Positions 9,886 to 62,628 are shown, counted from the stretch's first letter. The stretch: 64,000 nucleotides of DNA from a virus (IMGVR_UViG_3300027917_000018:138976-202975); one strand, 5' to 3'. A program made the numbers and translations. Notes: generated by a model from the sequence alone, not told the origin.

Positions 9886-10338
9886 ATGATACCGCGAGAC
9901 GTTTTCTACGATCGACTCGGCAAGCACTGCCAGCAGTGTGAGCACTGGGCCAACGTCTGCCTTAAGGGCCATGCGTCCAGCTCGCCGGAGGGCTGCCCGA
10001 TCTACAAGTTTCCGCCGATCCAGGGAGCCCAATACGCGTCCGTGCGCGAAGCCCCGTCGCCACCGGCCTTCGCCAATTGCTGCGGTAACACTATCCAAGA
10101 ACTGGAACCGTTAACCTGGCCGCAAGTTTTGGCGCATTTTGCCGAATCCATGACGAAGTGGATCGCGTCGGGAATGAAGGTCGTCAAGAAGGACACGCAC
10201 ATGAGCCGCTACGGCACCTGCAAGCTCAACACGTGCGGGGAATTCCGGGATTTCTACTGCCACCACTGTAAGTGCATCGCTTACTGCAAGGCCAAGCTGG
10301 CGACGGAAACGTGCCCGAAGAAGCTCTGGCCTACATGA
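9886..10338 (+). CDS. Cys-rich metal-binding hypothetical protein
   Basis: About 14 Cys including CxxC pairs and terminal KxxxxxxCPxxxW. Confidence 0.6.
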   Translation: MIPRDVFYDRLGKHCQQCEHWANVCLKGHASSSPEGCPIYKFPPIQGAQYASVREAPSPPAFANCCGNTIQELEPLTWPQVLAHFAESMTKWIASGMKVVKKDTHMSRYGTCKLNTCGEFRDFYCHHCKCIAYCKAKLATETCPKKLWPT

Positions 10339-11086
10339 CTTCGAGCTGGGTGCCGTCTTCCGTCGGGCTGATGTAGATTTCGCCGTAGGAATGAGCAGCT
10401 GCCGTGAGCCGCTCGCCCGCCTCTTCATCGTCCGTGAAATCGCCATCCCAAAAGCCAGCGCCGTGGCCGTTGCGGGTTAGCCAGAAGTCGTGCCCGGCCC
10501 GTGACGGATCGCCTTCGATGTCCCGCCAGTTTTTCTTCCAGAAGTCTTCGCATTCAGCCCGGAGCGTCTCTCGGGCCGCGTCGGTGAAGTCCCCGGTGTC
10601 GTAATCACGGTCCAGTGGGTGGCCGTGGCCTTCAGGGTCAACGGCGTCGTTGTTGCTGCTCCAGATGGCTGTCTCCAAGTATTGCTCGAAGAATTCTTCG
10701 GGCATTTCGGGCACGTGCGGGGCGTGCTTTTTGAGAAACTCACGGGGCGTTTCGGCCTCTACGACATCGCTGATTTCCCCGACGCCATGTCCGGTTGAGC
10801 TGACGAGAAAGATTTTGTTTACAGAAGGGCCTATAAGCCTTGGGTAGCCAAGCGGCTTGCCTAAGAGATTGTGGGCAATGCTCTTGGCGTCCTTGTAATC
10901 TCGTGTCGACCCATTGTCCGGCGTTCCACGGCCCCAATACCAGTGGGGTATGCCGTAGGTCCAGTAATAGGGAGTGCCTTCAGCCACACCGACCAGGAAA
11001 AACCGTGGATTGCGAAACTTGTGCTTGAGCAAGTCCCTGGGCGATTCCCCGGCCAATCCGTCGATGATAGCCCGTGCCCGGCTCAT
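10331..11086 (-). CDS. leader-family protein A (putative head-packaged), two modules
   Basis: Start MSRARAIIDGLAGESPRDLLK (ATGA overlap); internal VVEAETPREFLKKHAP; acidic C-terminal module with FWLTRNGHGAGFWD. Confidence 0.7.
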   Translation of the reverse strand: MSRARAIIDGLAGESPRDLLKHKFRNPRFFLVGVAEGTPYYWTYGIPHWYWGRGTPDNGSTRDYKDAKSIAHNLLGKPLGYPRLIGPSVNKIFLVSSTGHGVGEISDVVEAETPREFLKKHAPHVPEMPEEFFEQYLETAIWSSNNDAVDPEGHGHPLDRDYDTGDFTDAARETLRAECEDFWKKNWRDIEGDPSRAGHDFWLTRNGHGAGFWDGDFTDDEEAGERLTAAAHSYGEIYISPTEDGTQLEVM

Positions 11087-12093
11087 AGGTCGCGCTCCCG
11101 CTTTACGTCGTGGGCGTAGTAGTCCAGCTTGAAGCCCATCTTTTGCGCCAGCCGCCACGGCGCTTCTTCGCGGGTCTCTGGCGGAAGGTAGCCCCTGTGG
11201 CGCAGCCAGTCGAAGGCGCGGGTCAGGTAGTGGTCGCCGTAGCCTCCGGCCATCGGGAGCGTGTGAACCAACTCGCCGTTTACATAAATGTCCGCCGTGT
11301 TGTAGGTGTTGCCATAGGTTCGGCGAAACCACCGCCTGCCGATGACGGCGACTTCGCGCAGGACAAAGTGCTTTTTCAGAAGGTCGCGGGCCGACACCGC
11401 CTCCTGTTGGGGCCTGGGCGGCAGTAGCGGCGCAAAGATGTTTACGAACTGCTCCTTCGGGAGAAGCCGCGACATCATGCTCATCAGGTCATAAATGTCG
11501 CCCAGCGGGATTGGCTTTTCGCCGGATATGTCGTACCAGACCTTGTCCTTTTTCTCCCAAAAAGAGCCGCCGGATGGCAGATCGATGCGCCGCCCGGTCC
11601 ATTCAGTCTTGCGCTTGAAAAACTCACGAGGATTCACGGCCTCGACGACTTTGGGCCTGGTCTGCTCACGCGGCCAGAGCACGATGCGCCATTCACGAGG
11701 CCCGGCTACGCCGTCCACCCTACCGCTTCGCTGGCCTTTGCTGGCGTTGGGATACATTTTTGAGGTGTACCTGTGCATTTCGTCGGCGATGACCTGCTCT
11801 TCCTCATCCGTGAAATCCAGCAAGTCGGGATGGTTGGGATACCGCTGGAAGGTCTGCTCGAAGCCTAAAGCGTCTTCCACATCGTTGAGCAAACCGTACT
11901 CGCCGTCTTGTGGGAACACCGAGCCGTCGTCCCCAATGCCGACGGGCACGTATTCGGTCTGGTCATCGTCCATCATCGGCGGCTTACGGATCGCCAGATA
12001 GTAGCCTTCTCCGCCAGGTGGCAGCAGACGCGGCAGCCGCTTGATAATGGATCGCGGGCTCTCAGCCTCAATGATGTCGCGTGCCCGGCTCAT
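11083..12093 (-). CDS. leader-family protein B (putative head-packaged), three modules
   Basis: MSRARDIIEAESPR; internal VVEAVNPREFFK and QEAVSARDLLKK. Confidence 0.7.
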   Translation of the reverse strand: MSRARDIIEAESPRSIIKRLPRLLPPGGEGYYLAIRKPPMMDDDQTEYVPVGIGDDGSVFPQDGEYGLLNDVEDALGFEQTFQRYPNHPDLLDFTDEEEQVIADEMHRYTSKMYPNASKGQRSGRVDGVAGPREWRIVLWPREQTRPKVVEAVNPREFFKRKTEWTGRRIDLPSGGSFWEKKDKVWYDISGEKPIPLGDIYDLMSMMSRLLPKEQFVNIFAPLLPPRPQQEAVSARDLLKKHFVLREVAVIGRRWFRRTYGNTYNTADIYVNGELVHTLPMAGGYGDHYLTRAFDWLRHRGYLPPETREEAPWRLAQKMGFKLDYYAHDVKRERDL

Positions 12094-12329
12094 TTTTGAG
12101 CGTAAGCCTTTTTGATCGCGTCCGGCGGATCGGCGGCCATGAGGCGCATGGTGCTGCCATCGTCGAAGGTGACGATGTGCATGACTTCGGGCATCAAGTC
12201 CGAAGCGGGCGTGTTGGGCTGGGCGACCTCGGCGCTTACGGGCCGCCTGGCGCGGCGGGCCGCCTGGCTAAAGCGCTTGATTTTGTCCCGAGCGGACTCA
12301 GCCTCCAGGATGGTGCGCGCACGGCTCAT
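12090..12329 (-). CDS. leader-family protein C
   Basis: MSRARTILEAESARDKIK; ATGA overlaps. Confidence 0.7.
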   Translation of the reverse strand: MSRARTILEAESARDKIKRFSQAARRARRPVSAEVAQPNTPASDLMPEVMHIVTFDDGSTMRLMAADPPDAIKKAYAQK

Positions 12330-12586
12330 TTCCACTTTCCTGGCGTCAGCAGCTTCATGCGCTCGATCGCCTGGATCAGTTCCTCGGGGTCTAGGTTTTC
12401 ACCAAGCGCTTCGAGCCACGACCGGATGCGCTCCCGGTAGTCGGGATTTTTGCCTTTCCAGACCGGCCAGTTGTTCATCCAATCATGCCGTCCGATGACC
12501 TGTTCAACGAAGTCGGCAGCGAGGTCTTCAGCCTCGCTGATGCGCGGCGGGTGATAGTGGAGTGTAGGGTCCATCTGTAGGTACAT
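12326..12586 (-). CDS. hypothetical protein
   Basis: First gene of the leader-family operon; start uncertain (12586 or 12574). Confidence 0.5.
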   Translation of the reverse strand: MYLQMDPTLHYHPPRISEAEDLAADFVEQVIGRHDWMNNWPVWKGKNPDYRERIRSWLEALGENLDPEELIQAIERMKLLTPGKWK

Positions 12587-12588
12587 AC

Positions 12589-13026
12589 GTGAGCGGCGAG
12601 GCACAGACTTGCCCAAGGCGAATGCAGGAAGTAGGGCCTTGGAAGAAGGCAGAAAACGTGGACTCATGGGAAGCCCGCGACGGCCACCGCTTTTGCTCAT
12701 TCTGCGGGTGCCTTCACCCGGACGAGTTCCTGGAGATGGCCGAGTCGGGCGAGCAAATTATCCCGACCGACAAGAGCTACAAGGTCTATGTAAGAACAAT
12801 GGGCACAGGTGTTTGCAGCATGTGCCGTGGCTCGGGCAAAATGGAGGATGGCCGCAAGTGCCCTGTATGCCAGGATGGTCGAGCCTGGAGCGGCCCGCAG
12901 CTCAAAGCCTATTTTCAGCACTTTAGCGAGGAGCAGGCTCAGCGGTTCACACGGTTGCACAATGAGAGACGGCTGATCATGGCGCATCCTGGTCACTTTT
13001 ACGTGAAGCCGTTCTTCTGGAAGTAG
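12589..13026 (+). CDS. zinc-binding hypothetical protein
   Basis: CSFCGCLHP motif plus DnaJ-like CxxCxGxG...CxxC insert. Confidence 0.65.
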   Translation: MSGEAQTCPRRMQEVGPWKKAENVDSWEARDGHRFCSFCGCLHPDEFLEMAESGEQIIPTDKSYKVYVRTMGTGVCSMCRGSGKMEDGRKCPVCQDGRAWSGPQLKAYFQHFSEEQAQRFTRLHNERRLIMAHPGHFYVKPFFWK

Positions 13027-13028
13027 AC

Positions 13029-13814: not shown

Positions 13815-13851
13815 GTTGAACCGGTTGGAGAAACGAAATAAGGTAAACAGA

Positions 13852-14034
13852 ATGAAGCATCCTGACGATGGAAAATTCGTGGTCGTACAGGGCAGCGAGC
13901 GGATGACCGGCACAATGGACGAAAGCGCGGCCAAGCAAGAGGCTGAGCGCTTGCGCAAGCTCCAGGAGGGCAAGCAGCAGGAAGGCCAGCCGCCCGCCGA
14001 GGCACCGAAAGTAGTGCAGAACCTTTACGGTTAA
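13852..14034 (+). CDS. small hypothetical protein
   Basis: MKHPDDGKFVVVQGS; ATG 13852 chosen as start. Confidence 0.55.
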   Translation: MKHPDDGKFVVVQGSERMTGTMDESAAKQEAERLRKLQEGKQQEGQPPAEAPKVVQNLYG

Positions 14035-16285: not shown

Positions 16286-18341
16286 GCCTCGTCGGCTGTC
16301 CCGGCAGCAGCGGATCGATCGCGTTTTGGAGCTTGGTTTCGCGGGCGAGGACGTTGACAAGCTGTTGGAGGCGCTGAACGAGACCGAGCGCGAATGGCTT
16401 TGGGACGAGCTGGCCACGCTCAAGCGCACCGAGTCCGTTAAGGAGAAGGAATCCAAGCGCTTTGACTTTCTCCACAACCCACCGTTGATGGAACAGTACA
16501 TCAACGACGACTATTACCTGGGAAAAACGCTGCGGCCCAGCGAGGAGAACATCGGCATCTACCCGCGCTGGGCGCAGGTCCTGACCAGGGATTTCAACAT
16601 CGATTCCAGGATTCATAACGCCGTGATCACGGGATCGCTTGGTATCGGCAAAACCTGGATCATGGTGGCGATCCTGCTCTACCGAATCACGGTCACCACG
16701 CTGCTGCGTAACCCGCAGAACTTCTTCGGCCTGGCCCGTGGCTCGAACATCATCTACAACATTCTGTCGGTCACACGAGAAACCGTGCGGCAGACCGCCT
16801 TTGGGGATGCCATCAACTTCATGACGGCCAGCCCCTATTTCCTGGAGGAGCTGCGCTTTGACCCGGAGATGGAGTACTCCAAGTCAATCGTCCCGTTCCG
16901 CAACAACATCTTCCTGACGGCGGGTTCCAAGGGGTGGCACGTCTTAGGACGGAACGTCCTGGGCGTGGGCCTGGACGAGGGGAACTTCCGTTTGGAGCAG
17001 GACCCGGATGAGCGAGCCTACTCGCTTTACGATCAGGTGCGGACCCGTATCAGCAACCGGTTTCAGAAGATCGAGGGCTTTCTGCCCGCCATTTCGCTGA
17101 TCGCTTCCTCGGCAAGTGACGAGTCATCGTTTACGGAAACGGTTATCAAGGACATTGAAAAGGCTGGCAGCCCGTCGACCCAGGCCGTTTACCGGGAGCC
17201 CGTTTACAGAATCAAGCGGCACGAGCTGAAACTGGGCAAGCGCTGGTTTCGAGTCTCCTACGGGCTTAAGAATCAGGAGCCGTCGATCATGCGCGGCTGG
17301 TACTTCGAGAATGGCGAGCCGATTCCCGAGGAAGGGCCGCACGAGGACCCGCCCAAGGGAGCCAAAACAGAGCTGGTGCCGGAGATGTACTTCGCAGACT
17401 TTCGGCGCAATCCTCGGGTAAATCTTCAGTCGGTTTCAGGCATTTCGACCGGTGGCAGCCACCGGTTGTTCTCCTCAATGATCGATGTGGAGCGCTGCAT
17501 CGAGATTTCGGAAATGGAGGGCGTAGTCAACCCCGTCAAGGGCCAGCAGCGTCTTTTGCCCATTTCGGTAGAGGACAACCTGAACCTGTGGGACTACATG
17601 GTTCATTCGACCTTCCTGACCCGCGTTCAGTCGAAGGTTCAGCCCAAGCGGCACCCGAACCGGCTGCGCTACGTTCATTTGGACTTGGCCACGGTCAGCA
17701 AGGCAGGCATCTCGGTCTGCCACTTGGTTGGCGGCAAAAAGGTCGAAGGCGTGATCCGGGACGGCGAGCCTTTCGACGAGTACCGCCTGATTGTCGAGTA
17801 CGACTTCATCCTTACGATCTGCGCAGGGCAGGTCAAAGGCATCAATTTCGACAAGATTTGCCGATTTTTCTTCTGGCTCCGGGACATGTGCGGCTTCCGC
17901 TTCGGGCTGATCACCGCAGACTGGTTTCAGTCGGAAATGCCTCTGCAAACGCTTGAGGCTGCTGGCTTTAAGGTCGACAAGCAGTCGTTGGATAAGGACA
18001 AGGCGGCCTACACCGCCTGGCGGACCGGATTTGAGGACTTGCGAATCCGGCTCTATCGCCAGGATGAGATGCTGGATGAGGCGGAGCAGTTGATGGAAGG
18101 TGACAAGAAGTTTGACCATCCGGCAACCGGCTCGAAGGACACAACCGACGCCTGCGCCGGAGCCTACTTTAACGCCGTCAACAGCGACGAGCGCACGACC
18201 TTGCTGACTCAGGCTGTGCCGAGTATCCACGGCTACACCACCGAGGAGGCGCTGGCTTTGCAAGCCGGTGGCCAGGCCATCATGGAGATTCCGCTACCGT
18301 CGAGAACCTATCGAACCGTCAAGGAGCACCGGCTGAAGTAA
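16254..18341 (+). CDS. terL: terminase large subunit
   Basis: Walker A GSLGIGKT, Walker B GVGLDE, nuclease HLDLA and DHPATGSKDTTDA motifs. Confidence 0.92.
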   Translation: MASSNTSTRSKPRRLSRQQRIDRVLELGFAGEDVDKLLEALNETEREWLWDELATLKRTESVKEKESKRFDFLHNPPLMEQYINDDYYLGKTLRPSEENIGIYPRWAQVLTRDFNIDSRIHNAVITGSLGIGKTWIMVAILLYRITVTTLLRNPQNFFGLARGSNIIYNILSVTRETVRQTAFGDAINFMTASPYFLEELRFDPEMEYSKSIVPFRNNIFLTAGSKGWHVLGRNVLGVGLDEGNFRLEQDPDERAYSLYDQVRTRISNRFQKIEGFLPAISLIASSASDESSFTETVIKDIEKAGSPSTQAVYREPVYRIKRHELKLGKRWFRVSYGLKNQEPSIMRGWYFENGEPIPEEGPHEDPPKGAKTELVPEMYFADFRRNPRVNLQSVSGISTGGSHRLFSSMIDVERCIEISEMEGVVNPVKGQQRLLPISVEDNLNLWDYMVHSTFLTRVQSKVQPKRHPNRLRYVHLDLATVSKAGISVCHLVGGKKVEGVIRDGEPFDEYRLIVEYDFILTICAGQVKGINFDKICRFFFWLRDMCGFRFGLITADWFQSEMPLQTLEAAGFKVDKQSLDKDKAAYTAWRTGFEDLRIRLYRQDEMLDEAEQLMEGDKKFDHPATGSKDTTDACAGAYFNAVNSDERTTLLTQAVPSIHGYTTEEALALQAGGQAIMEIPLPSRTYRTVKEHRLK

Positions 18342-18348
18342 TTAAGGT

Positions 18349-18678
18349 ATGGCTGACCGCGTACAGCTTCCACCTTATTCGATGTGGGCCAAGACTCCCG
18401 CCTATCCGGCGACGGCGGACGGGCAGAACATCGTCGTGTTCGGGATGTTGCAGGACGTGATCGTGCCCGACCCGACGGATGTAACCTACAAGGTGCCGGT
18501 GGGAGCGCGCTACCGCCTCGATTTGATTTCGCAGAGCTTTTACGGCGTTCCCGATCTGTGGTGGGTGATTGCGCGTGTAAACGGAATTCTCGATCCGGTG
18601 GTCGGAGCCACGCCGGGTGCGACTATCCGAGTGCCCACTAAGGCTCGGTTGGCCAGGGAAGGTCTGTTGAGCGTCTGA
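18349..18678 (+). CDS. baseplate wedge LysM-like protein (T4 gp53-like)
   Basis: YKV...RLDLISQSFYGVPDLWWVIARVNGI.DP...G..IRVP. Confidence 0.85.
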   Translation: MADRVQLPPYSMWAKTPAYPATADGQNIVVFGMLQDVIVPDPTDVTYKVPVGARYRLDLISQSFYGVPDLWWVIARVNGILDPVVGATPGATIRVPTKARLAREGLLSV

Positions 18679-18694
18679 GCCAGGAGCAAGCGAT

Positions 18695-19174
18695 ATGGGA
18701 TTACTGACTGAGAACAAGCTGAAATCGGTTATCGAGCTGCCCATTGCCCTGCCCGCCACGAAGGTCAGGCAGGGCGACTGGCTGATCGCCGCCAGCGTTA
18801 AAATCAGCGGTCAGCAGCGGCTATCGATCCGCCACATGACATTCCAGTTGTCGGAGGCGAATGTGGATGTGGGCGACATCGAGCCTGGCAATAAGGTCAT
18901 CCCGAACCTGGGGCTGGCCTACGTCGTTCTGCGCAAGGACTACGTCTCGGGTGTTCCGGGCGGCAGTGGTGCGCTCGATTCACTTTATCTCGACGATATT
19001 GGCTCCACGACAACGAGCACCGTATCGGCGCTCTACAGCGAGGCCGGAACGTACTCGATTCTCGTGGCCAACAACATGCAAGCTGTTTCGGGCGTGACAA
19101 TTCCGACGAGCACGTCGATCGATTTCACGCTGGTTCTAACCGGACACATTCGCCTGGAGCTGATCGGTGCCTGA
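18695..19174 (+). CDS. virion structural protein, paralog of 20021 ORF
   Basis: LPIALPAT...Q.LSIRH.T shared with the 20021 ORF. Confidence 0.6.
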   Translation: MGLLTENKLKSVIELPIALPATKVRQGDWLIAASVKISGQQRLSIRHMTFQLSEANVDVGDIEPGNKVIPNLGLAYVVLRKDYVSGVPGGSGALDSLYLDDIGSTTTSTVSALYSEAGTYSILVANNMQAVSGVTIPTSTSIDFTLVLTGHIRLELIGA

Positions 19175-20024
19175 TCGACCCGTCAAAGCTTTCCTGAGCC
19201 GGGCGCATTACAGCGCCGAGCTTTGGGCGTTCACCGAACATGAGCTGTCCGGCGACAATGCCAGGCGATGCCAGCGGGACGGCCAATTCTTTTACGAGCG
19301 GTTGGGCGGTGAGCCCCTGCGTGTCACTCGCGGTGGCGGGGTGCCGGGCGCAACGGGCCAAGATCAGAAAGCGGTTCAAGAGTTCGACAACGCAATGCGG
19401 GCTCTTTATCGCGGGCGTTCTCAGGGCCAGGAGATTCAGGGGCCGGTGTTGGTTAAGGCTTACGATGACCCCAACAACCTGGCCGAAAATGAAATGGATG
19501 AGCTAGCCACTGAATGGCGCTGGGTAAAGGCCACGCATGACGGTCGGTTCATTGGCTGGTACGCCGCCGAATCCGACCCACGAGCTTTCTTCAGCAAGTT
19601 TTCGCGGGAGCGCGTCGCCGAGCATGTTCAGAAGAATTTGGAAGGCTGGGGATGGACGCAGCAGTACGATCTGATCACCGTTCGCTACGACTTTCCGGGG
19701 CTTTTTATCAACTGGCGCGGTGATGGTGCCCAAGCCCACGCCAGGATTAAGCTCAAGATCAAACCTCCAGCGGTATTTCGGGATTTGTTTGTGAAGCAGA
19801 CCGTCATCGGAATTGGGGACGTGGACCAGGTCTACATTCAGCTGATCGACGTGGACCAGGCTCTTCCGCCGATTGGGGCTTGGACCAAGACCTTCTGCAC
19901 CAACCCCGAAAAGGACGTGCCGACATACGAGCAGGCCCGGTCCGCCTTCGAGATGCTGAGACGCCAACTGGAAATGCGTGCCATCAACAAAGGCCAGATG
20001 ATTTTTGGATGGGGACAAGCATGA
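19167..20024 (+). CDS. hypothetical protein
   Basis: Long ORF coupled within the structural operon. Confidence 0.6.
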   Translation: MPDRPVKAFLSRAHYSAELWAFTEHELSGDNARRCQRDGQFFYERLGGEPLRVTRGGGVPGATGQDQKAVQEFDNAMRALYRGRSQGQEIQGPVLVKAYDDPNNLAENEMDELATEWRWVKATHDGRFIGWYAAESDPRAFFSKFSRERVAEHVQKNLEGWGWTQQYDLITVRYDFPGLFINWRGDGAQAHARIKLKIKPPAVFRDLFVKQTVIGIGDVDQVYIQLIDVDQALPPIGAWTKTFCTNPEKDVPTYEQARSAFEMLRRQLEMRAINKGQMIFGWGQA

Positions 20025-20440
20025 GCCGATACGTTTCAGAGAGCTATTTCGAGACGGTGCGGACGCTACCGGTTGCGCTGGCGCAAACGGAGCTGAAGCG
20101 CGAGAACTCGCTTGTGATCTGTCGGCTGCCGCTGGCGTTGAACCAGACGCTGGAGCTTCGGTCTCTGACACTGCACATTATCAAAATCTTAACCCCAGGG
20201 GTGAAGCCTTTCAGCGAGGTCACCGTCAACGGGATCGCCAGCGTCGGCCTTCAGTTTGCTGGAATGGCCACCGGCATGATTGGCTCGGTCAACCTGGAGA
20301 ATGTTGGGTCGGCGACCTGGAATCCCTACGAGCCGGTGTTGATCACGGCTCCGGGCACTTATCAGGTAACCGTCCGAAACCACACGAACAACGTGGACAT
20401 GGCCATTGCCGTGACCGGCAGCGTGAAGATTTTCAGTTGA
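20021..20440 (+). CDS. virion structural protein, paralog of 18695 ORF
   Basis: LPVALAQT...Q.LELRSLT; ATGA overlap at 20021. Confidence 0.6.
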   Translation: MSRYVSESYFETVRTLPVALAQTELKRENSLVICRLPLALNQTLELRSLTLHIIKILTPGVKPFSEVTVNGIASVGLQFAGMATGMIGSVNLENVGSATWNPYEPVLITAPGTYQVTVRNHTNNVDMAIAVTGSVKIFS

Positions 20441-35343: not shown

Positions 35344-36026
35344 CGGCACCGGTCGAACAGGTCCACGATCAGCCGTTCCAAGGCTTCCGCCAGGGACTTT
35401 TCCCGCACGTGGCGCATTTTCCACACCACAACTTCCGCCAGCCCCACACCCGGACAGTCCGCCAAGTCTTCGTAGCCGTAGGCGGTCACGAACGGCACGA
35501 GCGGGTGGTACCGGCGGCAGTTGCAGTAATCCATCGTCGATCCGTAGGTCCGCAGCTCGATGTTCCGTGAGTTGGCCCGGTGGACATGGCTGACCCGGAT
35601 CAAGGCGTTGGCGATGTTGGCCGCCACGAATCGATCCATGAGCGTGCTGAAGCTCAAGACCAGCTCCTTGTAGGTCTCGTGCTCCGGGCTGGAGACGGCG
35701 GCCTGGATGGCGTCGATTTGGGCCGCCAGGGGCAGGCAGAGCTTCTTTTCCCACCGGGTCTTGACCTTGTCCCCGGCTTTGCGAAAAAGCAGCTTGCCGA
35801 ATTCGCGCACGAGGACAGCCTGCTGGCGCTCCGGGTCCAGCTTGGCGAAACTGGGGTAGACGTTGACCTCCGGCTTACCCGCCACATTGAGCGAGGCGTC
35901 GGCCCCGCTGGACACCTTGCTGGGCTTCCACTGCATCTCGCCCCATTGGCGGGTTACGTGGTTGCATCGCCCGACCTGGGATTGGTTCAGGGCGGTTCCG
36001 GCTGCTTGGACTGCTTCTTCGTACAT
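35340..36026 (-). CDS. hypothetical protein with degenerate zincin-like motif
   Basis: VLVREFGK in place of HExGH. Confidence 0.55.
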   Translation of the reverse strand: MYEEAVQAAGTALNQSQVGRCNHVTRQWGEMQWKPSKVSSGADASLNVAGKPEVNVYPSFAKLDPERQQAVLVREFGKLLFRKAGDKVKTRWEKKLCLPLAAQIDAIQAAVSSPEHETYKELVLSFSTLMDRFVAANIANALIRVSHVHRANSRNIELRTYGSTMDYCNCRRYHPLVPFVTAYGYEDLADCPGVGLAEVVVWKMRHVREKSLAEALERLIVDLFDRCR

Positions 36027-36820
36027 CAGTTGACCCTCATGATCACCGCTCCGCTGTGGAGGGTATCGTAGTTGCCGTCATAAGTATTCAGGAAGTGGGC
36101 GAAGCCGTCTGTGCTGACCGCCTCTTTGGCCGCTGCGTCGATGTCGATGCCGACCAGTTCGATGGCCTGTTTTCCAGCGTCCTCCTTGCCGTAGATGTCC
36201 TCCAGGTATTCCATACCGTCGAAACGGTCTTCCTGGGAGCTAATCCAGCTTTCCTTGGCTTCGTCGACCAGCTCTGAGTAGTTTTCGACCTTCACAAGCT
36301 CGGGATCGCCGTCCTCGTCTTCCTGCTCGGTCCAAAGGTCATCCTCATCCAGATAGCCCTCTTTTTGCAGGAACTCAGCCCACTCGTCCTCGTCGTCGTA
36401 CATCTGCTCCAGGTTGTGATCCCGGTAGTCGCTCCAAAGAAGGCTGTCGAGCCTTTTGGTATCGATGTGGCTGCGCAGCCAGTCTTGGTTGAACAGTTCG
36501 GGCTCGTCCCTGAGCTGCTGTTCGACGTAGCGGAGCGCGGTTGTTTCTGCTTCGTCCTCGTCCTTGTAGATTTCCCATTCCATGTTGCCGCTGGACACGC
36601 GCATCATGGCATCATCGTGGGTCTCGGGTTCGACTTTGGTCTCCAGGGAGACCTGGGCTTCTCTAGCGGCCACCTGCTGCCAGTCCTCCAAGTCGTCCCA
36701 AATCTCGTTCCACGCGTCCGACATGACGGTGTAGCTTTTGGCTACCCGCTTGATGAAGTCTCGCGGGCTTTCCTTGCCCTCCAGGACGGCGGTGGCTAGC
36801 TCTTTGGCTAGTAGCTCCAT
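36026..36820 (-). CDS. leader-family protein D, very acidic
   Basis: LAKELATAVLEGKESPRDFIK; D/E-rich; DGFAHFLNTYDG. Confidence 0.7.
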   Translation of the reverse strand: MELLAKELATAVLEGKESPRDFIKRVAKSYTVMSDAWNEIWDDLEDWQQVAAREAQVSLETKVEPETHDDAMMRVSSGNMEWEIYKDEDEAETTALRYVEQQLRDEPELFNQDWLRSHIDTKRLDSLLWSDYRDHNLEQMYDDEDEWAEFLQKEGYLDEDDLWTEQEDEDGDPELVKVENYSELVDEAKESWISSQEDRFDGMEYLEDIYGKEDAGKQAIELVGIDIDAAAKEAVSTDGFAHFLNTYDGNYDTLHSGAVIMRVN

Positions 36821-37335
36821 ACCAAGCTCCTGTTTTGTACGTCCCACAGCGCCTTGTCATTGTCGTCGTTGCGCACGAGAACGTAGCGGGTTTGGATGCC
36901 GTCAAAGTTAGGAGGTTCGTTCGGGTCGCCGCTGACGATCGAAAGTTTACCTTCAGCCTCCGCGCCCTCCAGGTCCATGTCTTCCCAAGGCCATACGCCG
37001 ATGTCGGCGGTACTTCCTGGATGGCTGCCCAAAAATGTAAACGGCGGGCAATACTTGCGTTGGATATAACTGTACAGGTCCGTCTCAACTTCGACCAGGT
37101 CCCAGTCCTGTGCCTTGGCCTCGTCGTAGTTCGCTTGGTATTCGGAGGCGGCTCCGGGGTCAAGCTCCTTGAGCAAACCGAGCCCAGCGTCGATCAAGTC
37201 GTCGGTGTCTAAGGTGCCCCTAGAAAGCTCCCATCCTACGGGCAGGTAGTTGACGCGGGGCAGCTTGCCCAAGACCCGCTTAGGCGATTCTCCGTCCTCC
37301 AGGACTGCCCTGGCCAATTGTTCGGCAGGTCTCAT
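36808..37335 (-). CDS. leader-family protein E, acidic
   Basis: MRPAEQLARAVLEDGESPKRVL. Confidence 0.7.
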   Translation of the reverse strand: MRPAEQLARAVLEDGESPKRVLGKLPRVNYLPVGWELSRGTLDTDDLIDAGLGLLKELDPGAASEYQANYDEAKAQDWDLVEVETDLYSYIQRKYCPPFTFLGSHPGSTADIGVWPWEDMDLEGAEAEGKLSIVSGDPNEPPNFDGIQTRYVLVRNDDNDKALWDVQNRSLVWSY

Positions 37336-38165
37336 CGACGTTCCGGTGCGTACTTCCAGGGTTTGGCCTTGCGGATGGCTTTGGGGTCGGTTTCCCGCTT
37401 GAGGCGTTCGGCGTCGGCCATCAGCTCATGCTTGCGCTGGACCCGTTTGAGCCAATGAAGTCGATCGAGGTAGCTTTCGGACAGCAGTCCGAGTCGAACC
37501 AAGTGCTCCAAATTAAGCAGCATCTGGTTGGGGTCGCGCATGCCACGACGCCAGCGGCGCGGCGGATCGTAAGTCAGAATCCGAATAGCGCGCTCGGGCG
37601 TGATCACATCCTTGCCATCCAGGTGAATCGTGCCGTCGGGCTTGGCGGTGCCGCCGTGAAACTCCAAGGTGCCGTCGGGTTTGATCTTGTCCCCGTTGCC
37701 GAAAGGAATAGCGAACCAGCGTGGGTGCTTTCGCTTGTACTCCGTCCAAATCTTGCCCCGCATTTCATCCGGCCAATGGTAGTTGGCCCAGTGCCAATCC
37801 CCGCCACCGAAGCCGTGCCATCCGCTGATGTTTCTGCCGTAAACAAACCAGTTGTGGGGCAGGAAGGAATTAAGGTGCTGCTTGGTGGTGACGGTCTGCC
37901 ACCGGCCCACGTTGACTTCGACCGTACCGTCCGGCTCATAGGACAGGATGTCGGTTTCGTGGTAGCGCAGCGCGTACTTTCGCTCGGCAGGCCAGTACAG
38001 GTGCCTGATGTTGCGGTGTTCGCCTCTGCGGAATTTGGCCCCGTATCGGTCCCAATCGCGCCAGCGCTTAAACTGGGGCCAGGCGTGCGGGTAGCGAGGC
38101 GCGTGCTTCTTCAGAAACTCGCGGGGCGTCAGCTCGGCTTCCAGAATGTCGAAAGCGCGGCTCAT
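37332..38165 (-). CDS. leader-family protein F, basic
   Basis: MSRAFDILEAELTPREFLKKHAP; YHETDILSYEPDG...GRWQTVTTKQHLN. Confidence 0.7.
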   Translation of the reverse strand: MSRAFDILEAELTPREFLKKHAPRYPHAWPQFKRWRDWDRYGAKFRRGEHRNIRHLYWPAERKYALRYHETDILSYEPDGTVEVNVGRWQTVTTKQHLNSFLPHNWFVYGRNISGWHGFGGGDWHWANYHWPDEMRGKIWTEYKRKHPRWFAIPFGNGDKIKPDGTLEFHGGTAKPDGTIHLDGKDVITPERAIRILTYDPPRRWRRGMRDPNQMLLNLEHLVRLGLLSESYLDRLHWLKRVQRKHELMADAERLKRETDPKAIRKAKPWKYAPERR

Positions 38166-38686
38166 CAATCCAAATCCGGGTTGTACTCGCGCAAGTAGAG
38201 CGCGACATAGTAATAAAGGTTGAAGTCGCCCATCTCGACCATTTCAGCGACCTTTTCCTGGACGGCTTCATTGTACTCCTCGTCGGTCTCGAAGTCGTCT
38301 CGATCCAGTTCGCCCTGAGCTTCTTGGTCCAGCTGACGAACAATTTCGTCGTGGGCGCTGGGCTCGGTGTCTTCAATCTCCTCGACAGTGTCGAGCTTCC
38401 AGTAGGAGGCGGCTTGCTCCAGGGCGTCAGAAGCGGCTTCCGCCGGGTTGTCCCCGGCCCCGACGTAAACATCGTCCCAGTTAGTGAAGGCGGTACCGCG
38501 TCCCTGAAAGTAGTCGGAATTGCATAGGCCGATCTGTTCCCACTCGTATTCCTGCGGGACTTTGTCGTAGCGCTGGTGATGAGGCGTGTGGGGCGCGTGC
38601 TTTTTGAGGAAGTCACGTGGGTTTTCGCCCTCGTCGGCTTCCAACACGGCCCTGGCTAACTGTCGGGCTGCGCTACGGACATCCAT
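38165..38686 (-). CDS. leader-family protein G, acidic
   Basis: ARQLARAVLEADEGENPRDFLKKHAP. Confidence 0.7.
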   Translation of the reverse strand: MDVRSAARQLARAVLEADEGENPRDFLKKHAPHTPHHQRYDKVPQEYEWEQIGLCNSDYFQGRGTAFTNWDDVYVGAGDNPAEAASDALEQAASYWKLDTVEEIEDTEPSAHDEIVRQLDQEAQGELDRDDFETDEEYNEAVQEKVAEMVEMGDFNLYYYVALYLREYNPDLD

Positions 38687-39267: not shown

Positions 39268-39842
39268 AAGTTCGTTGGTGTTTCAGGTTCTCGTTCTCCC
39301 GGAGCGGCAGCAGGAGCCGCAGGGGTGGGCTCTGCGACTCCCGCCTCGGCACCCGGCGCAGCTTCAGGAGATTCTTCACCCGGAGGCGCTTCCTCTTCTG
39401 GACCGAAATCAGTGCCCAGGGGTGGCGTGCTTGCCCCGGCTCCGCCCATAAAGGGCTCGTTTTGGGCCGCGTTTCCGGCGGCGGTAGGCGAGCTGGTAAT
39501 CTCCGTCTTGGCCGAATCCAGGGTGGTGATCAGCCCTTGGAAAAAGGACGCATCGGGCCAGTCCAGCCGGGCGGCGGTGTTGGCCGCTCCGATCAGGTAC
39601 TCGTAGGCGTCAGTGTTCTGGTCCTTGATGTCTTGGGCCTTGAGCCGCCACTGAATCCAGTAATCCCGGATCATCTTGGCGTATTCCGGGTTGGTCTGCT
39701 CGTACTTCTTGGCCAGCTTGTCCAACCGGAAATCCATCTGGTTGTACCAGCGGCTCATCGCGACCGGATTGATGGCTTCCAGGACCTCCTGGGCCTCCGG
39801 GGCGGCGTGCGCCACCGCCAAGTCTTCGTAGCTGTGGTTCAT
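39264..39842 (-). CDS. hypothetical protein with acidic Pro-rich tail
   Basis: Coupled ORF in the same operon. Confidence 0.6.
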   Translation of the reverse strand: MNHSYEDLAVAHAAPEAQEVLEAINPVAMSRWYNQMDFRLDKLAKKYEQTNPEYAKMIRDYWIQWRLKAQDIKDQNTDAYEYLIGAANTAARLDWPDASFFQGLITTLDSAKTEITSSPTAAGNAAQNEPFMGGAGASTPPLGTDFGPEEEAPPGEESPEAAPGAEAGVAEPTPAAPAAAPGEREPETPTNL

Positions 39843-40672
39843 TGGCCAAAAACAGGCGGCTTGGGAATTCGGTGCTTCTTGGGCATACCGGCTATCGGCA
39901 TGTCGACGATCCGGCGGGGTCGCCCGCGCCTGCGAGCGAGGTTCTCGGGCATTGGCGGCTTTTCAGGCTCGGCGGGCTTTTCGGTCGCCCGGCGTTGGTT
40001 GATGGCCTGAATCTGTCCCTTGTTCTTGCAAAATCCGCAGTTGCAGCCGGGAGCGTGCTGCTCCTGGACCAACAGGCGGCTGACGATTTCCTTGGCTTCC
40101 TTGCGGGCCGAGCCTTTGGGCGTGCCGGTTGGACCGGTGCCCGCACTGGGTTTGCCGACGCCCATCGTCTTCTTCCAGGGAGCTTCCGGGTGGGTGACCG
40201 GGTTGTTCGGGTCAGGCTCCATCGGGGTGGTGGCAAACTCGCGGCCTTTCTTGATGACGGCGTCCAGCCCAGCCGAGGGTTTGTCGGCGTCGGTCGTGTC
40301 GGCGAGAGCGATGTCGATGAATCGGATGCGGTAGTCGGTGGGTTCTCCAGTCATGCCCTGGTCGCCCAGGCAAGCGGCCACCCAGCCCTGCTCTGCCAAC
40401 TTCTCCATCGCGTCGGGCTGCGTAAGAACGTTTACGTGGCTGCGGTACTCTTCACCGTCGTTGCAAAGCAATGCCATGCCCTCCGGGTCCAGCTCCAGGC
40501 CGTCGCCGACCTCGATGCCCAGGGACTTAAGCGCCTTGGCCAGGGGTGTTTTCTTGGCCCGCAATGGATTTTCCTCGGCCTGCTCGAAGATTCGCTCCAT
40601 CGCCTCGCGACATTCTTCCAGCTCGGCCTCCATCTGTGAGTCGCCGAACAGGTATGCCAGCATCTTGTTCAT
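39839..40672 (-). CDS. hypothetical protein (possible prohead core-type)
   Basis: E-rich N-terminus, HxxGCxCGFC, Pro/Lys tail; GTAGTTAGG motif upstream. Confidence 0.6.
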   Translation of the reverse strand: MNKMLAYLFGDSQMEAELEECREAMERIFEQAEENPLRAKKTPLAKALKSLGIEVGDGLELDPEGMALLCNDGEEYRSHVNVLTQPDAMEKLAEQGWVAACLGDQGMTGEPTDYRIRFIDIALADTTDADKPSAGLDAVIKKGREFATTPMEPDPNNPVTHPEAPWKKTMGVGKPSAGTGPTGTPKGSARKEAKEIVSRLLVQEQHAPGCNCGFCKNKGQIQAINQRRATEKPAEPEKPPMPENLARRRGRPRRIVDMPIAGMPKKHRIPKPPVFGQ

Positions 40673-40678: not shown

Positions 40679-41182
40679 CTAACTACTCTCCTTGCGTCGG
40701 CGTTCAGCCTCGGCGATCTGAGCCTGGATAATCGGGGCTAGGCGCGGCGGATCGTAGCTTGGCCCTTTCATCCATTTGCCGTCCTCCCGCAGGAACCCGT
40801 CGATGAACTTGGTCATGTTGGAGCGGTGGACCTCTTCCCAGCCAGGTTCCAGCTCCAGCCCCAGGGCGATGGCTGTGCCGACGGCGAAAACGAGGATGTC
40901 CAGGACGGCGTCGTAGGCGTCGCGGAGGTTTGTCTCGGGTTCCAGCTGAACGGACGCGTAGGGCGATGGGTTGGCGTCCACGCCGTAAAAGCGGACCCCA
41001 TTGGCCCGGTTTCGTTCCATCCGAATGTCCACGTCCAGGGCGTCGCACAGCTCCAGCAGCTCTTCAGCAAGCGTGCGGCAGCGCAGAGCGCAGACATCGC
41101 GGCTGGGCATGCCGGGCATGTCCGGCACGTCCTGGTGGGCGTTTCGCATGAATTCTCGGATTTGTTCTTGGGCTTTTTTCAT
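40679..41182 (-). CDS. MazG-like / PRA-PH nucleoside triphosphate pyrophosphohydrolase
   Basis: LAEELLEL, DAVLDILV, EEVHRSNMTK, REDGKWMKG. Confidence 0.88.
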   Translation of the reverse strand: MKKAQEQIREFMRNAHQDVPDMPGMPSRDVCALRCRTLAEELLELCDALDVDIRMERNRANGVRFYGVDANPSPYASVQLEPETNLRDAYDAVLDILVFAVGTAIALGLELEPGWEEVHRSNMTKFIDGFLREDGKWMKGPSYDPPRLAPIIQAQIAEAERRRKESS

Positions 41183-43254: not shown

Positions 43255-43482
43255 ATGCCTCGCGAGAGCTATGAATTGCAGGCGGCTGCGCTAAAAAAGC
43301 TGTTGGAGAAGGCCGACGTGGATTCCTCGGACCTTCGCCACTTGCGCAACGCGGTCCGTAATCTTGAGCATCTGGCTGCGCTGCGGAGGGCCATCGTGGA
43401 AGGTGAAATGGACCCCGACGTGCTTTCCGACAAGATCATCCATATTCTGCACTTGCCGCGAGAGGACGTAGTTAAGGCGTGA
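43255..43482 (+). CDS. small helical hypothetical protein
   Basis: MPRESYELQ; GTTCT 7 nt upstream. Confidence 0.55.
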   Translation: MPRESYELQAAALKKLLEKADVDSSDLRHLRNAVRNLEHLAALRRAIVEGEMDPDVLSDKIIHILHLPREDVVKA

Positions 43483-43910
43483 CCGGCAAAGAACTGGCTG
43501 GACGTGTCCTCGAAGGCGAATCTCCCCGCGAGATTTTGCGCCGGATTGCGCGTACCAACCCGCCCCAGCCGCCGATGTCCGAGGTCGATTTTGATGTGGA
43601 GGCTGAAGAGGAATATGACCGGCCTGAAGGGCACTTCACCGAACCCGAAGACGTTGAGTGGGTTCGGGACCAGATCGAGGCAGGCAATGAGTGGGGCTGG
43701 TGTTCCGCGCACGTGATCGCGACCTGGACTGATCCCCTCACTTACCGGACCTATCAGGGCGACCAGTACCTGGGCGGCTGTTCCTACCGCAGCAAGCAGG
43801 ACTTCATGGAGCCTGGCGGCTACTATGACGACATGAAGGAAGAGGCTTACCAGGACCTGTTGCGCAACATCGAGGACACCTGGGAGCCGCCCGAGGACGA
43901 CGAGGAATAG
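43479..43910 (+). CDS. leader-family protein H, acidic
   Basis: MTGKELAGRVLEGESPREIL; YLGGCSY...GGYYDDM. Confidence 0.7.
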   Translation: MTGKELAGRVLEGESPREILRRIARTNPPQPPMSEVDFDVEAEEEYDRPEGHFTEPEDVEWVRDQIEAGNEWGWCSAHVIATWTDPLTYRTYQGDQYLGGCSYRSKQDFMEPGGYYDDMKEEAYQDLLRNIEDTWEPPEDDEE

Positions 43911-51558: not shown

Positions 51559-52361
51559 TGCCATTTGTAAACGGGAATTGCTTCCTTGAGCTTTGCGACG
51601 TGCTGGCTTTGAGGATCGAAAGGCCGGTCGCCGTGCCACTCGCTGTAGCGTCCGGCCCGGATGCCCTCCCAATCAAAGGTGGCCAGCTTATCCTTTCCCC
51701 GGTAGAGCCGGTTTGGATTTAAGTGCTCCCAAAAGAAACGCATCAGGACCACGTCGGTATGCGGTGATAGCGCCCGGCGGCGCAGGATGTCGGAGGAGTA
51801 TTCTTCGTCGAGTCCCCAAAAGACGTTGGAAGTCTTGAAGTCGTTCCGACGGTTGAAGACTTTGACAACCTCCTCGTCCCACGATCCGTTTAGGCCAAAA
51901 ACCTCTTTGAATTTAGTCCCGGTGGCGACGTGGTGGCTGCTTGGGAACGTCGCCCTGGGATCGCTGGGATTCGGGTAGTAGGCGTCGGCCAGGCCGACGG
52001 TGTACTTCGATCGGACTTCGTTCGTGCGGAAGCTGTCGAAGAAAGCGCCGTTCAGCGGAACCTGGTCGATGCCGCTGAGCATGCAGAGGTCTTGTGGAAA
52101 CAACGTGGCCCCATAGAAAAGCGCCCATGTACAGGCCCATTCCTGCTGCCGGTCGACGGTTACCGAGTCGACGCGATGGAGCCGGTGAATTTCGCCGAAC
52201 TGTGCTGAGAGCCGACAGTCTTCCAGTTCCTTCTCCGATCCGTAGAAGATCAAGGTGGGAAGGATGTCGTATTTCGTCCGCCAAACCTCGGACACGAAGT
52301 TCCAATAAGCGGTATAGAGCGGGTTCGCCGTGAGTGTCAGGATAACGCGATCAATCTTCAT
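51555..52361 (-). CDS. putative glycosyltransferase-like protein
   Basis: Located in the glycan cluster; SGID, WGLDEEY, HGDRP. Confidence 0.5.
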
Positions 52362-53088
52362 TGTAGCGGTCGATCAGGCTTTTCCAAGTCGGCGAGTAGA
52401 CCTGGTCGACCACGCGAGGCTCGCCCTCCAGGGCAAAACCACAATGATCGCAGTGTGAATAGAGCGTTTTGAGCCGCTCAGCCGTTATGTCTTGGACGTG
52501 CTTGACTGGGGCGTCGTAGCCGAACACGCGGGCCGCCGCTGCCGCCGGGGCGCAAGGCCAAAAACCTTGTTTATTGAGTGCGATGCCGCAGTCCTGGGCG
52601 ATGTAGCAGCCGGATGGTGCGGGCACCCCGAGGTCCTTCGGGCTCTTGTTTACGGGCACGTAGGGGAGCGGCACGAGCTTTCCCTTGTCGTCGGGAGCGG
52701 CGTTGGTGCCGATTTTGACCGAAACCAAGTCGGTAAAACCATGCTCCATTGCGAACCTGACCAGCTCCGGTGAGCGCCCGTTGGAGACCACCGACAGCCG
52801 CGTGCCGGGGCTGCTGGCGTTTCTCCAGGCGGCCAGCGCCGTGACGATTTCCTTGTACTGCGGGTGCAAAGTCGGCTCGCCGCCGTGGAGCTTGACCCAC
52901 GACCACCGGTAGTTGGCCTGGACAGTTTCGTGGATGAACCTGGTGATGTCGTCCAGATTCATGTCCTCGGTCTTTCGGTCTTTGGGAGGGGCTTGCGGGC
53001 TTAGAGCGCAGCAGTTTGCGCAGGCGACGTTGCAAAGGTACGTCAGCGCGACTTCAAGGTACTCCAGATTTGGCTCAAATGCCTGCAT
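52351..53088 (-). CDS. radical SAM protein
   Basis: CNVACANC, LHGGEPTLHP, SNG, C-terminal C...CG...PC...CxxC. Confidence 0.9.
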   Translation of the reverse strand: MQAFEPNLEYLEVALTYLCNVACANCCALSPQAPPKDRKTEDMNLDDITRFIHETVQANYRWSWVKLHGGEPTLHPQYKEIVTALAAWRNASSPGTRLSVVSNGRSPELVRFAMEHGFTDLVSVKIGTNAAPDDKGKLVPLPYVPVNKSPKDLGVPAPSGCYIAQDCGIALNKQGFWPCAPAAAAARVFGYDAPVKHVQDITAERLKTLYSHCDHCGFALEGEPRVVDQVYSPTWKSLIDRYNED

Positions 53089-61070: not shown

Positions 61071-61077
61071 TTAAGGC

Positions 61078-61314
61078 ATGAGCAGAGCGCGCCGTTTACT
61101 GGAACGAATCCTGGCCAGCCCGACCGAGGCCCCTCCAAAGCCAGGGGTCAAGCCGGGTAAGCCGGAGACCAAGCCTGAGCGGCCTGTTCGTCCACCGCAA
61201 CCAGGCCGCCCCGATCCCTGGCGTCGCCGCGAAATCAAGCCTGGCGAAGAACCGCGTCCCCGCGCCAAGGGCTGCATGTTTACGGTAGGGGACCAAATCA
61301 CCCGACAGTCATGA
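61078..61314 (+). CDS. leader-family Pro/Lys-rich small protein I
   Basis: MSRARRLLE; PKPGVKPGKPETKP; GTAATTAAGG upstream. Confidence 0.6.
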   Translation: MSRARRLLERILASPTEAPPKPGVKPGKPETKPERPVRPPQPGRPDPWRRREIKPGEEPRPRAKGCMFTVGDQITRQS

Positions 61315-61487
61315 CCGGAACTGGAACAGGAGCCATCCCGACCGTTGAGCGCCCAATGCTCGTGGGGCTGTCCTTCTTGGCGCAAAAGAAGCGCAAAAAG
61401 CGCCGGGAGCAGGCCGAGGCGTTGGCCAAGGCTGTCCTGGAAGGCGATATTTCCAAGAGCAATGAGACGGGCAAGAGCGATAGTTGA
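61311..61487 (+). CDS. 58-aa ORF J with leader-like segment (not in ORF track)
   Basis: MTGTGTG...EQAEALAKAVLEGD; ATGA overlap. Confidence 0.45.
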   Translation: MTGTGTGAIPTVERPMLVGLSFLAQKKRKKRREQAEALAKAVLEGDISKSNETGKSDS

Positions 61488-62628
61488 AATGGCGCTAGGT
61501 CTCGGCGGTCTGCCGGACATCATCCACCCAAGCCACAAGCAAAAGCTGGCGACCGGCGAGCATGCCTTGGGCGGTAATCCGGCATTCTCTGATCCCTCCA
61601 AGCACGAGAAGCACGCGGGCCAGACCTACCAACAGGTCATGCGCAACGCGGAGCGCTACTACGGGCAGATGCCCCGTTCTCAGCGCGACGCCGTGATGAT
61701 GGCCGTTGAGGTCATGCAGGCGCTGGGCAGGATACAGCAGACCGAGGCCGAGCACCGGCCCGAGCTGGAACACCTGGCGGTCGAGACCGTGCTGCGAATG
61801 GACGAATTCAAGTCCCTCCGGCGAGCCCTGGAGCAGGGCAACTTGAAGATCGACGCGAAGCTCCAGCCGCAGCTTGAAATTCAGGGCACGGCGTTCTCCG
61901 ACGAGCCGCAGGAGGAGCCCGAGGAAATGGAGATTCCGCAGATTCGCCAGGAAATCGATCAGGCCATTCACAAGCGCAATTTCGTAAACGCATTGATTCA
62001 GGGCGCGGCCCTGACGAACAACTACGCTTGGTCCTATCACAGTCGCGACGAGCTTTCACAAATCGATCCCGACCTGCTGCGTGATTACGGGAAGCTGATG
62101 TCGGCCACCGAAGTCGGTTACTGGGTCCAAGGCGAGGAAGCCGTGCGCCAGGCGATGCAGGCGGGCGGCGAGCAGGCCCAGGTGGGTGATGCCAGGCTCA
62201 AATCCAATCCAGACGGCTCAGTGACCGTCCAGGCCCGTGGCGTGGCCTTTCCCATTCTCGTTCAGGAGCTGATCAAAGGCTTGATGGAGTACCTGTCGTT
62301 CGACGACGAGGAGGACCCTGAGACCCGCAAGCTTGTTCACAGCAAGTCTGATTTCATCGATGCCGAGACAATCCAAATGATGCTGGGGCCGAGTCTTTGG
62401 AAGGAATTCTTGGATGCGGTCGGTGGTGATGCGCGGGAGGTCGTGCCCCACGTTTACGACCACATTGTCCGCATGCCCACCACCGAGTTCAACCAGCTCA
62501 TGCGCGGTCTGGTGGACGGCGACCCGGCAGCCAAGCGCCAGATGCACGACCTAGCCCAGCAGATAAAGCGGGAGGTCGGCGGTCAGGAAGAGGCGTTACG
62601 GATCGCCAAGAGGCTTCTTGGAGGTTAG
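61462..62628 (+). CDS. leader-family protein K (putative virion protein)
   Basis: MRRARAIVE; ARGVAFPILVQELIKG; MMLGPSLW. Confidence 0.7.
   Translation: MRRARAIVEMALGLGGLPDIIHPSHKQKLATGEHALGGNPAFSDPSKHEKHAGQTYQQVMRNAERYYGQMPRSQRDAVMMAVEVMQALGRIQQTEAEHRPELEHLAVETVLRMDEFKSLRRALEQGNLKIDAKLQPQLEIQGTAFSDEPQEEPEEMEIPQIRQEIDQAIHKRNFVNALIQGAALTNNYAWSYHSRDELSQIDPDLLRDYGKLMSATEVGYWVQGEEAVRQAMQAGGEQAQVGDARLKSNPDGSVTVQARGVAFPILVQELIKGLMEYLSFDDEEDPETRKLVHSKSDFIDAETIQMMLGPSLWKEFLDAVGGDAREVVPHVYDHIVRMPTTEFNQLMRGLVDGDPAAKRQMHDLAQQIKREVGGQEEALRIAKRLLGG

Follow-up and report, generated by a model that had tools for sequence, protein, structure and literature searches.

In phage T4, the internal proteins IPI, IPII, IPIII and Alt carry a capsid-targeting sequence (CTS) that is removed by the prohead protease gp21. 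In phage P1, the Dar antirestriction proteins are packaged via N-terminal determinants and their loading follows a Dar hierarchy; we know of no common short tag described for them. The T4 CTS, ten residues long, is the sole conserved part among diverse internal proteins (PMC3012670, PMC9026906), and these ten residues are enough for targeting, with residues 8 and 10 governing processing (PMC9026906, PMC3012670). In phiKZ-like giant phages, the long N-terminal propeptides of ejection and inner-body proteins are cut at A/S/G-x-E (PMC5694885). For the polyvalent proteins of phages, packaging, delivery along with the DNA and cleavage into units have been predicted (PMC5512222; Iyer, Burroughs, Anand, de Souza, Aravind 2017). 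Here we describe a leader peptide shared by otherwise unrelated proteins in a 64,000-nucleotide stretch of viral DNA (IMGVR_UViG_3300027917_000018:138976-202975, hereafter the window). An earlier note on this DNA had listed about eleven such leaders and read them as a capsid-targeting and prohead-protease signal. We found no published description of expanded, two-part, junction-forming tags.

The window is the last 64 kb of an IMG/VR record of 202,975 bp (60% GC, estimated completeness 89%), named G000 here; coordinates are those of the window unless G000 is given. The sequencing runs containing this DNA are marine sediment metagenomes, and judged by its sequence the record is an uncultured T4-type phage of about 203 kb. 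A hidden Markov model (HMM) of the leader was built from the G000 copies and run on all stop-to-stop open reading frames (ORFs) of G000. The results showed 20 significant full copies, with E-values from 1e-7 to 2e-13 and one at 8e-4, all of them within 124-183 kb of G000 and nine of them in the window; copies of the first half only come in addition. About 25 otherwise unrelated G000 proteins begin with the leader, which is about 25 residues long. Fifteen of the 20 full copies stand at a start codon. The remaining five include one within ORF 10331-11086 and two within a 726-aa ORF that immediately precedes the window. The figure of about eleven was therefore too low for the genome and too high for full copies in the window: eight of the eleven sites are full copies, and the three near 61 kb carry the first half at most.

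The leader has two N-terminal forms, MSRARxI[LI]E-A-E and x-L-A-x-x-V-L-E-[GD]-x-E (b-type), and both continue with an invariant Glu (19/20 copies) and then [ST]-P-[RK]-x-h-[LI]-K-[KR]. The rough consensus of the earlier note was correct. The Glu is near-invariant, Pro is found in 18/20 copies and Arg or Lys follows directly after it; Ser or Thr precedes the Pro, likewise in 18/20. Stretches such as ESPRDFLKK and ETPREFLKK look like the n-region motif of a twin-arginine translocation (Tat) export signal, with S-P-R-x-F-L-K resembling S-R-R-x-F-L-K, an explanation to which we attach practically no weight. It was rejected on the sequence, because Pro takes the place of the first Arg, leaving Pro-Arg where the twin arginine should be, and because no hydrophobic h-region follows the motif, where polar, His/Pro-rich or acidic sequence is found instead. 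Moreover, the motif also lies inside ORFs, and the variants in relatives are without it.

Codon choice at the conserved residues is scrambled and draws on different synonymous families, with Ser encoded by both TCN and AGC, Arg by both CGN and AGG, and Glu by GAA in 10 and GAG in 9 copies. Selection thus operates at the level of the peptide rather than of DNA or RNA, and we conclude that the leader is real. A nucleic-acid feature, either a downstream-box-like element aiding the translation of near-leaderless mRNAs or a recombination site for cassette shuffling, is accordingly very improbable. In many genes here a promoter-like box does stand at 8-25 nt from the start, and the cargo set is mosaic between relatives; however, conservation lies at the amino-acid level and copies occur inside ORFs, far from any start. 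An element at the DNA or RNA level was rejected on the scrambled codons and internal copies.

Each of the eight full window copies listed before has a domain E-value between 1e-7 and 1e-12 and stands at the start codon of its ORF, mostly at ATGA-type operon overlaps. A six-frame regular expression regained all eight and gave an extra site at 10742-10765(-), and a ninth full copy, absent from the earlier note, is internal (10718-10798(-)) and lies in the same ORF as the 11086 copy. Three of the ORFs are adjacent on the minus strand. The 251-aa ORF 10331-11086(-) carries an N-terminal copy at 11012-11086 and the internal one at 10718-10798 (E = 3e-10 and 1e-9); the internal copy directly precedes a second module, and phrog_1915 of PHROG matches only residues 130-245, which follow immediately on that copy. 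The 336-aa ORF 11083-12093(-) has a canonical leader at 12028-12093, MSRARDIIEAESPRSIIKR (E = 8e-12); phrog_6246 and some small viral proteins match its last 90 aa, and Pfam gave no match for this ORF. The 79-aa ORF 12090-12329(-) has its leader at 12264-12329, with ESAR instead of ESPR (E = 1e-11). Four further ORFs form a second minus-strand group: the 264-aa ORF 36026-36820 (b-type leader 36737-36820, E = 2e-7), the 175-aa ORF 36808-37335 (b-type, 37255-37335, E = 2e-7), the 277-aa ORF 37332-38165 (leader 38097-38165 with a one-residue insertion, AELTPRE, E = 6e-11) and the 173-aa ORF 38165-38686 (b-type, 38591-38686, with a longer acidic spacer, E = 6e-9). On the plus strand, the 143-aa ORF 43479-43910 starts with GTG and has a b-type leader at 43479-43553 (E = 2e-7). 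As the earlier note had stated, the bodies behind the leaders are unrelated: BLAST found no mutual similarity at E<0.01, except one 16-residue match.

The relation of leader to body was clearest for the protein of 36026-36820. An AlphaFold2 (AF2) model of it, based on 22 homologues, had a mean pLDDT (predicted local distance difference test) of 89, with body residues 41-264 above 90. Residues 1-40 (pLDDT 57-75) were modelled as a helix (2-13), a loop (14-18) and a second helix (19-31), and the loop holds the invariant Glu and the Ser preceding Pro. In the model, the leader is a detached helix-loop-helix ahead of the fold. The body is a member of a widespread family whose proteins have about 230 aa; most of its 60 homologues begin directly at the body and are leaderless, and among them only the nearest relatives (P0028, P0029) and P0034, which has a clade-type leader, carry one. 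Likewise, in the ESM Atlas, residues 47-264 align to viral proteins of 218-227 aa. Because most body homologues are leaderless and the modelled segment is detached, the leader is an add-on. The body family is very acidic, and its fold is uncharacterised, as Foldseek of the model against the PDB gave no match at E<=0.001.

The leader also stands between modules. The 726-aa G000 ORF has three copies and window ORF 10331-11086 has two. An exhaustive profile search of 1.84 billion representative proteins gave only 25 matches, nearly all from residue 1, of which about 15 came from outside G000. In many of these the core E-A-E-[SDNT]-P-K-x-F-L-[KR] recurs internally at intervals of 100-330 residues, and a 1603-aa protein, encoded close to AcrVA2-like and cpYpsA genes, has five to six such repeats. 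Across the multi-module ORFs the junction motif occurs 2-6 times, and the modules recognised include InPase and DUF6166. Immediately ahead of the 726-aa ORF with its three modules, G000 134356-134517 (locus L125) is a 53-aa ORF that consists of a leader and about 30 residues; it may be a remnant or a frameshifted module, and the 726-aa ORF has its own leader.

Five large relatives (G001-G005), whose capsid proteins are 70-83% identical to that of G000, were analysed whole. The earlier note had called for a leader HMM run on the genome and its relatives; this gave the 20 full copies in G000, whereas the G000 HMM had zero matches in the five relatives, which have variants of their own instead. 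No homologues of the bodies of G000 leader proteins were found in these five genomes either. Clustering of N-termini showed that every genome has its own leader family of common design: x-x-I-L-x-H-L-L-E-D-D-E-E-D-F-D-L-K-D-L in G001, M-x-A-x-x-L-V-x-x-L-L-E-x-x-P-D-E-V-x-P-K in G002, x-Q-L-V-x-x-L-L-G-E in G003, M-K-P-x-x-L-V-E-x-L-L-x-E in G004 and M-x-A-R-x-x-I-D-E in G005. At a threshold of 6 bits, a clade HMM gave 99 matches in the six genomes (11-30 per genome) versus 3 on reversed decoys; the split of these matches into N-terminal and internal ones is unreliable, the simple gene caller often setting starts too far upstream. Homologous modules follow the local type: module 3 of the 726-aa G000 ORF stands behind a G000-type copy and its homologue G001_55367 behind a G001-type leader, and a HAD-PNKP phosphatase module has the local leader in G000, G001 and G002 and is leaderless in G004. 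The leader thus changes in concert within genomes, which points to a partner that differs between genomes. A closer relative, on a 7.5-kb JGI contig (locus L124), has the G000-type leader on two or more neighbouring genes, of which one is a homologue of 11083-12093.

These variants also bear on another explanation, namely recognition of the leader by a modifying enzyme, either a maturase of the radical S-adenosylmethionine (SAM) type, as for ribosomally synthesized and post-translationally modified peptides (RiPPs), or a kinase or glycosyltransferase acting on Ser/Thr-Pro. The Ser or Thr in 18/20 copies with Pro next to it would suit such an enzyme; a glycosyltransferase-like gene lies within the head module, and a 245-aa radical-SAM protein is encoded at 52351-53088(-) (PF04055, E = 3e-9). 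However, G001 (96% complete) and G004 (100% complete), each with a leader family, lack radical SAM, and a radical-SAM recognition tag fails for this reason. The G000 enzyme had no SPASM-type match above any cut-off and no specific NCBIfam, with MoaA, viperin and peptide-maturase matches far below cut-offs, and the leader variants of G001, G002, G004 and G005 are without Ser/Thr-Pro. We consider modification very unlikely.

All six genomes also encode a T4-type head protease, which the earlier note had advised to seek outside the window. In G000, Pfam Peptidase_S77 (PF03420, gp21 prohead protease) matches 17418-17888 (E = 1e-21) inside a 555-codon open frame, and Gp23 (PF07068, capsid protein) matches 19314-20438 (E = 7e-28); one S77 protease, fused to a long tail, is found in each of G000 and the five relatives. 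G000 17334-18995 (locus L126) joins the gp21-type protease, a linker rich in Lys and Glu, and a helical, scaffold-like tail about 300 residues long in one 554-codon frame. The fusion is the same in all five relatives, with open frames of 507-612 aa; in T4, gp21 and gp22 are two separate genes. Between genomes, the protease domain is 55-65% identical and the scaffold-like tail, of about 340 residues, 31-46%. The protease N-termini read MQQLLEG, MSKMLLED and PRILLED, and by eye these LLE-type starts parallel LIE-9 near the N-terminus of T4 gp21, which fits the cleavage logo of gp21 itself and for which a CTS-like role was proposed (PMC9026906). Just upstream of the protease, four genomes encode small acidic proteins that start with M-x-x-x-h-x-+-h-L-G-E, a start shared by scattered other genes. 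In summary, the tag is clade-wide, genome-specific in form, placed at N-termini and junctions, and accompanied by a T4-type head protease.

The start of the capsid protein is probably 58 codons ahead of its Pfam match, and the extension (G000 19041-19214, locus L002) contains GSPRGLW, which resembles the leader core and is kept in G001, G002 and G005; it was not counted as evidence because it is not conserved in G003 and G004. Profile alignment of the capsid protein to T4 gp23 begins only at residue 110, so the capsid maturation site is not placeable, with MLE/N and LDE/V as candidates (slash marking the cut). A phmmer search of the capsid protein against PDB sequences gave no match, a capsid-protein search found 62 related viral contigs, and blastn of 7.9 kb against cultured phages gave zero matches.

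A further association concerns the hexamer TAGTTA. G000 has 37 sites versus about 39 expected from composition, so there is no overall excess; 23 of the 37 are followed within 8-25 nt by a start codon, in most cases that of a virion gene, and the genes behind the box include tail sheath, baseplate hub, portal, tail fibre and head-tail adaptor. We infer that the box may mark late expression. In the window, one box (43469-43474(+)) stands 10 nt upstream of the leader gene at 43479, and another (40680-40685(-)) precedes gene 39839-40672(-), the head of a packed run that includes the four leader genes of 36026-38686. As for the statement that several leader operons start with a putative late motif, the box heads two of the three in the window and is missing at the operon 10331-12586(-). 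Across G000, G002, G003 and G005, leader genes were significantly enriched in box-headed operons (26/71 versus 205/1194 for all genes; odds ratio 3, Fisher p = 6e-5).

By analogy with T4, the leader may be a two-part, CTS-like capsid address and cleavage tag, to which, on circumstantial support, we give an even chance. The capsid-targeting claim of the earlier note agrees with the N-terminal add-on, the hydrophobic-x-Glu element, the gp21 and gp23 genes, the concerted change, the junctions and the box. In the mechanism we propose, the leader would be an add-on address tag doubling as a junction peptide. Its N-terminal amphipathic helix, ending in hydrophobic-hydrophobic-Glu (MSRARxILE or xLAxxVLE), would dock the protein on the prohead core, here presumably the scaffold-like tail fused to the gp21-type protease. 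A short loop with the invariant Glu would come next, then a second short helix beginning with Ser/Thr-Pro-Arg/Lys. The protease would cut at one of the two loop Glu residues, removing a propeptide of 8-11 residues and separating the modules of fused ORFs, and the freed modules may remain in the head until they pass into the host together with the DNA. All of these steps, from docking and cutting to packaging and ejection, are drawn from the T4 analogy.

The comparison with T4 gives both likenesses and differences. As with the T4 CTS, a short N-terminal peptide is the sole common part of diverse, fast-evolving accessory proteins (PMC3012670, PMC9026906, PMC5694885); a hydrophobic-x-Glu element, gp21-type protease and gp23-type capsid genes, and a cargo that looks like counter-defence are also shared. 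Unlike the ten-residue CTS, the leader here has about 25 residues and two parts, is found on 20-30 genes per genome rather than 4-5, also joins modules in long ORFs and has a variant for each lineage. With the T4 CTS itself, MKTYQEFIAE, only the general pattern is common (amphipathic, Glu at the end), and the peptides are too short for homology testing.

Several observations weigh against a capsid address. The I/V-L/I-E present in most copies resembles the gp21 site L/I-x-E, but its Glu is only about 60% conserved, with D, N or A elsewhere; the invariant Glu lies 2-6 residues further on and has E, A, G, D or K at P3, not Leu or Ile. The proposed cut falls before or at the edge of the best-conserved stretch, E-[ST]-P-[RK]-x-h-h-K, whereas in T4 conservation is confined to the propeptide that is removed. 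The earlier interpretation is thus partly supported. The leader genes have replication genes as neighbours (helicase, DnaB, DNA polymerase), some of the bodies, such as the HAD-PNKP phosphatase, work in the cytoplasm in T4, and roughly 10% of all genes would have to be head cargo, a large share. There is no TAGTTA box at the operon 10331-12586(-), and G001 and G004, in which the box is rare, show no box enrichment. The clade HMM retrieves neither the protease nor the head-core N-termini, the likeness to these being a pattern seen by eye, and there is no cultured relative, the closest cultured phage by capsid protein having only 29% identity.

Some of these observations would fit a serious rival, which we nevertheless regard as unlikely, namely that the leader is a docking or linker peptide for another phage or host hub (for example a chaperone, a protease, the phage tubulin apparatus or a replication factory) with no packaging into the head, and that the junction copies are cut in the cytoplasm or possibly left uncut. 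The genome-specific, concerted leader types imply a co-evolving partner, not its identity; the second helix, P-R-x-F-L-K, would remain on the mature protein if the cut were at the Glu; and the leader genes lie amid replication and accessory genes, some in operons without the late-type box. However, no candidate hub was found, and docking elsewhere leaves unexplained the hydrophobic-hydrophobic-Glu, the T4-type protease in six genomes, the LLE at the protease N-terminus and the enrichment in operons headed by the box of structural genes.

The capsid-address reading can also be compared with what the leader proteins carry. For the leader-protein bodies in the window, Pfam and PADLOC gave no match and PHROGs only families without assigned function. 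Elsewhere in the clade, tagged modules include InPase, 2H phosphoesterase, HAD-PNKP phosphatase, DMP19 and DUF6166, together with a weak match to PRTase. Three of these, InPase, 2H and PRTase, have been described in phage-type polyvalent proteins, for which packaging and injection are predicted (PMC5512222). The proteins here share with these the stringing of unrelated conflict-type domains in one polypeptide, and InPase, 2H and PRTase are common to both (PMC5512222). Polyvalent proteins embed a peptidase for self-processing, usually a zincin-like MPTase; here, Pfam found no peptidase domain in the multi-module proteins, the modules are parted by one repeated junction peptide, and most are separate small tagged genes. 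In the phiKZ-like giants SPN3US and 201phi2-1, many head-internal proteins are likewise cut by a gp21-related protease, and diverged paralogues have conserved N-termini (PMC5694885); those propeptides have 100 residues or more and belong to paralogous families, unlike the short tag on unrelated bodies here. The head-loading and injection of anti-defence proteins in P1 (PMC9024508, PMC5512222) is a further parallel.

In this clade of uncultured T4-like jumbo phages, the leader might be a lineage-specific 'zip code', a two-part helix-loop-helix that co-evolves with the fast-evolving, protease-fused scaffold tail and loads 20-30 swappable counter-defence modules per genome (about one tenth of the genes), some as polyproteins cut by the head protease at the repeated tag. 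We put forward this wider proposal tentatively and rate its chance at somewhat below even. If the tag is a capsid address, the proteins injected ahead of gene expression could be listed from sequence alone. Proteins of this kind are rich in counter-defence functions, and here they would include InPase, 2H, PNKP-phosphatase, DMP19-like modules and at least one body family of uncharacterised fold. The CTS principle of T4 would widen from a few internal proteins to a large, modular, lineage-specific system, and a tie to polyvalent proteins would emerge, with a repeated protease-site junction replacing the embedded peptidase in a distributed, tag-based counterpart. The genome-specific variants would offer a natural experiment on the co-evolution of tag and receptor, and possibly a tool for packaging chosen proteins in phage heads.

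The three sites near 61 kb have no E-[ST]-P-[RK] half and were not significant with the full HMM. A strict N-terminal nonamer, [MVL][STGRK]RA[RFK]x[ILV][ILV][EDN], had 15 matches in the six frames of G000, all at start codons, and 0 in 20 Markov-1 random genomes. Two of the three sites fit it, so that the leader claim made for 61078 and 61462 is above chance for the first half only. The first, MSRARRLLE, begins a 78-aa Pro/Lys-rich ORF (61078-61314(+), full HMM E = 0.02-0.05) of uncertain coding status, which the gene caller skipped; the second, MRRARAIVE, begins the 388-aa ORF 61462-62628(+), whose start may be 61489 instead. The weakest of the claimed sites is a weak match to the b-type helix, ALAKAVLEGD (61422-61445(+)), at the C-terminal end of the 58-aa ORF 61311-61487; it fits the pattern LA..VLE[GDAE], which has 7 matches in the genome versus about 0.15 expected, but it has no ESPR half and is not N-terminal. 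Two internal b-type helices (LAASVLEG), also without an ESPR half, are found in a 343-aa gene behind a TAGTTA box at G000 118903-119934.

Other shared N-termini occur in these genomes. In G002, about 35 tandem small genes of 70-110 aa at 192-199 kb (L086-L087) start with MIPE-x-G-[ST]-x-x-E-F-K-[RH]-x-V-L, which is unrelated to the leader, and many contain CxxC. A four-member paralogue family, with members at 6371-7117(+) and 7119-7841(+) and also at G000 101281-102768, shares the N-terminal G-[ST]-[ND]-W-x-x-[IL]-R-[IV]-G, and G001 has seven tandem copies of this family and one member elsewhere.

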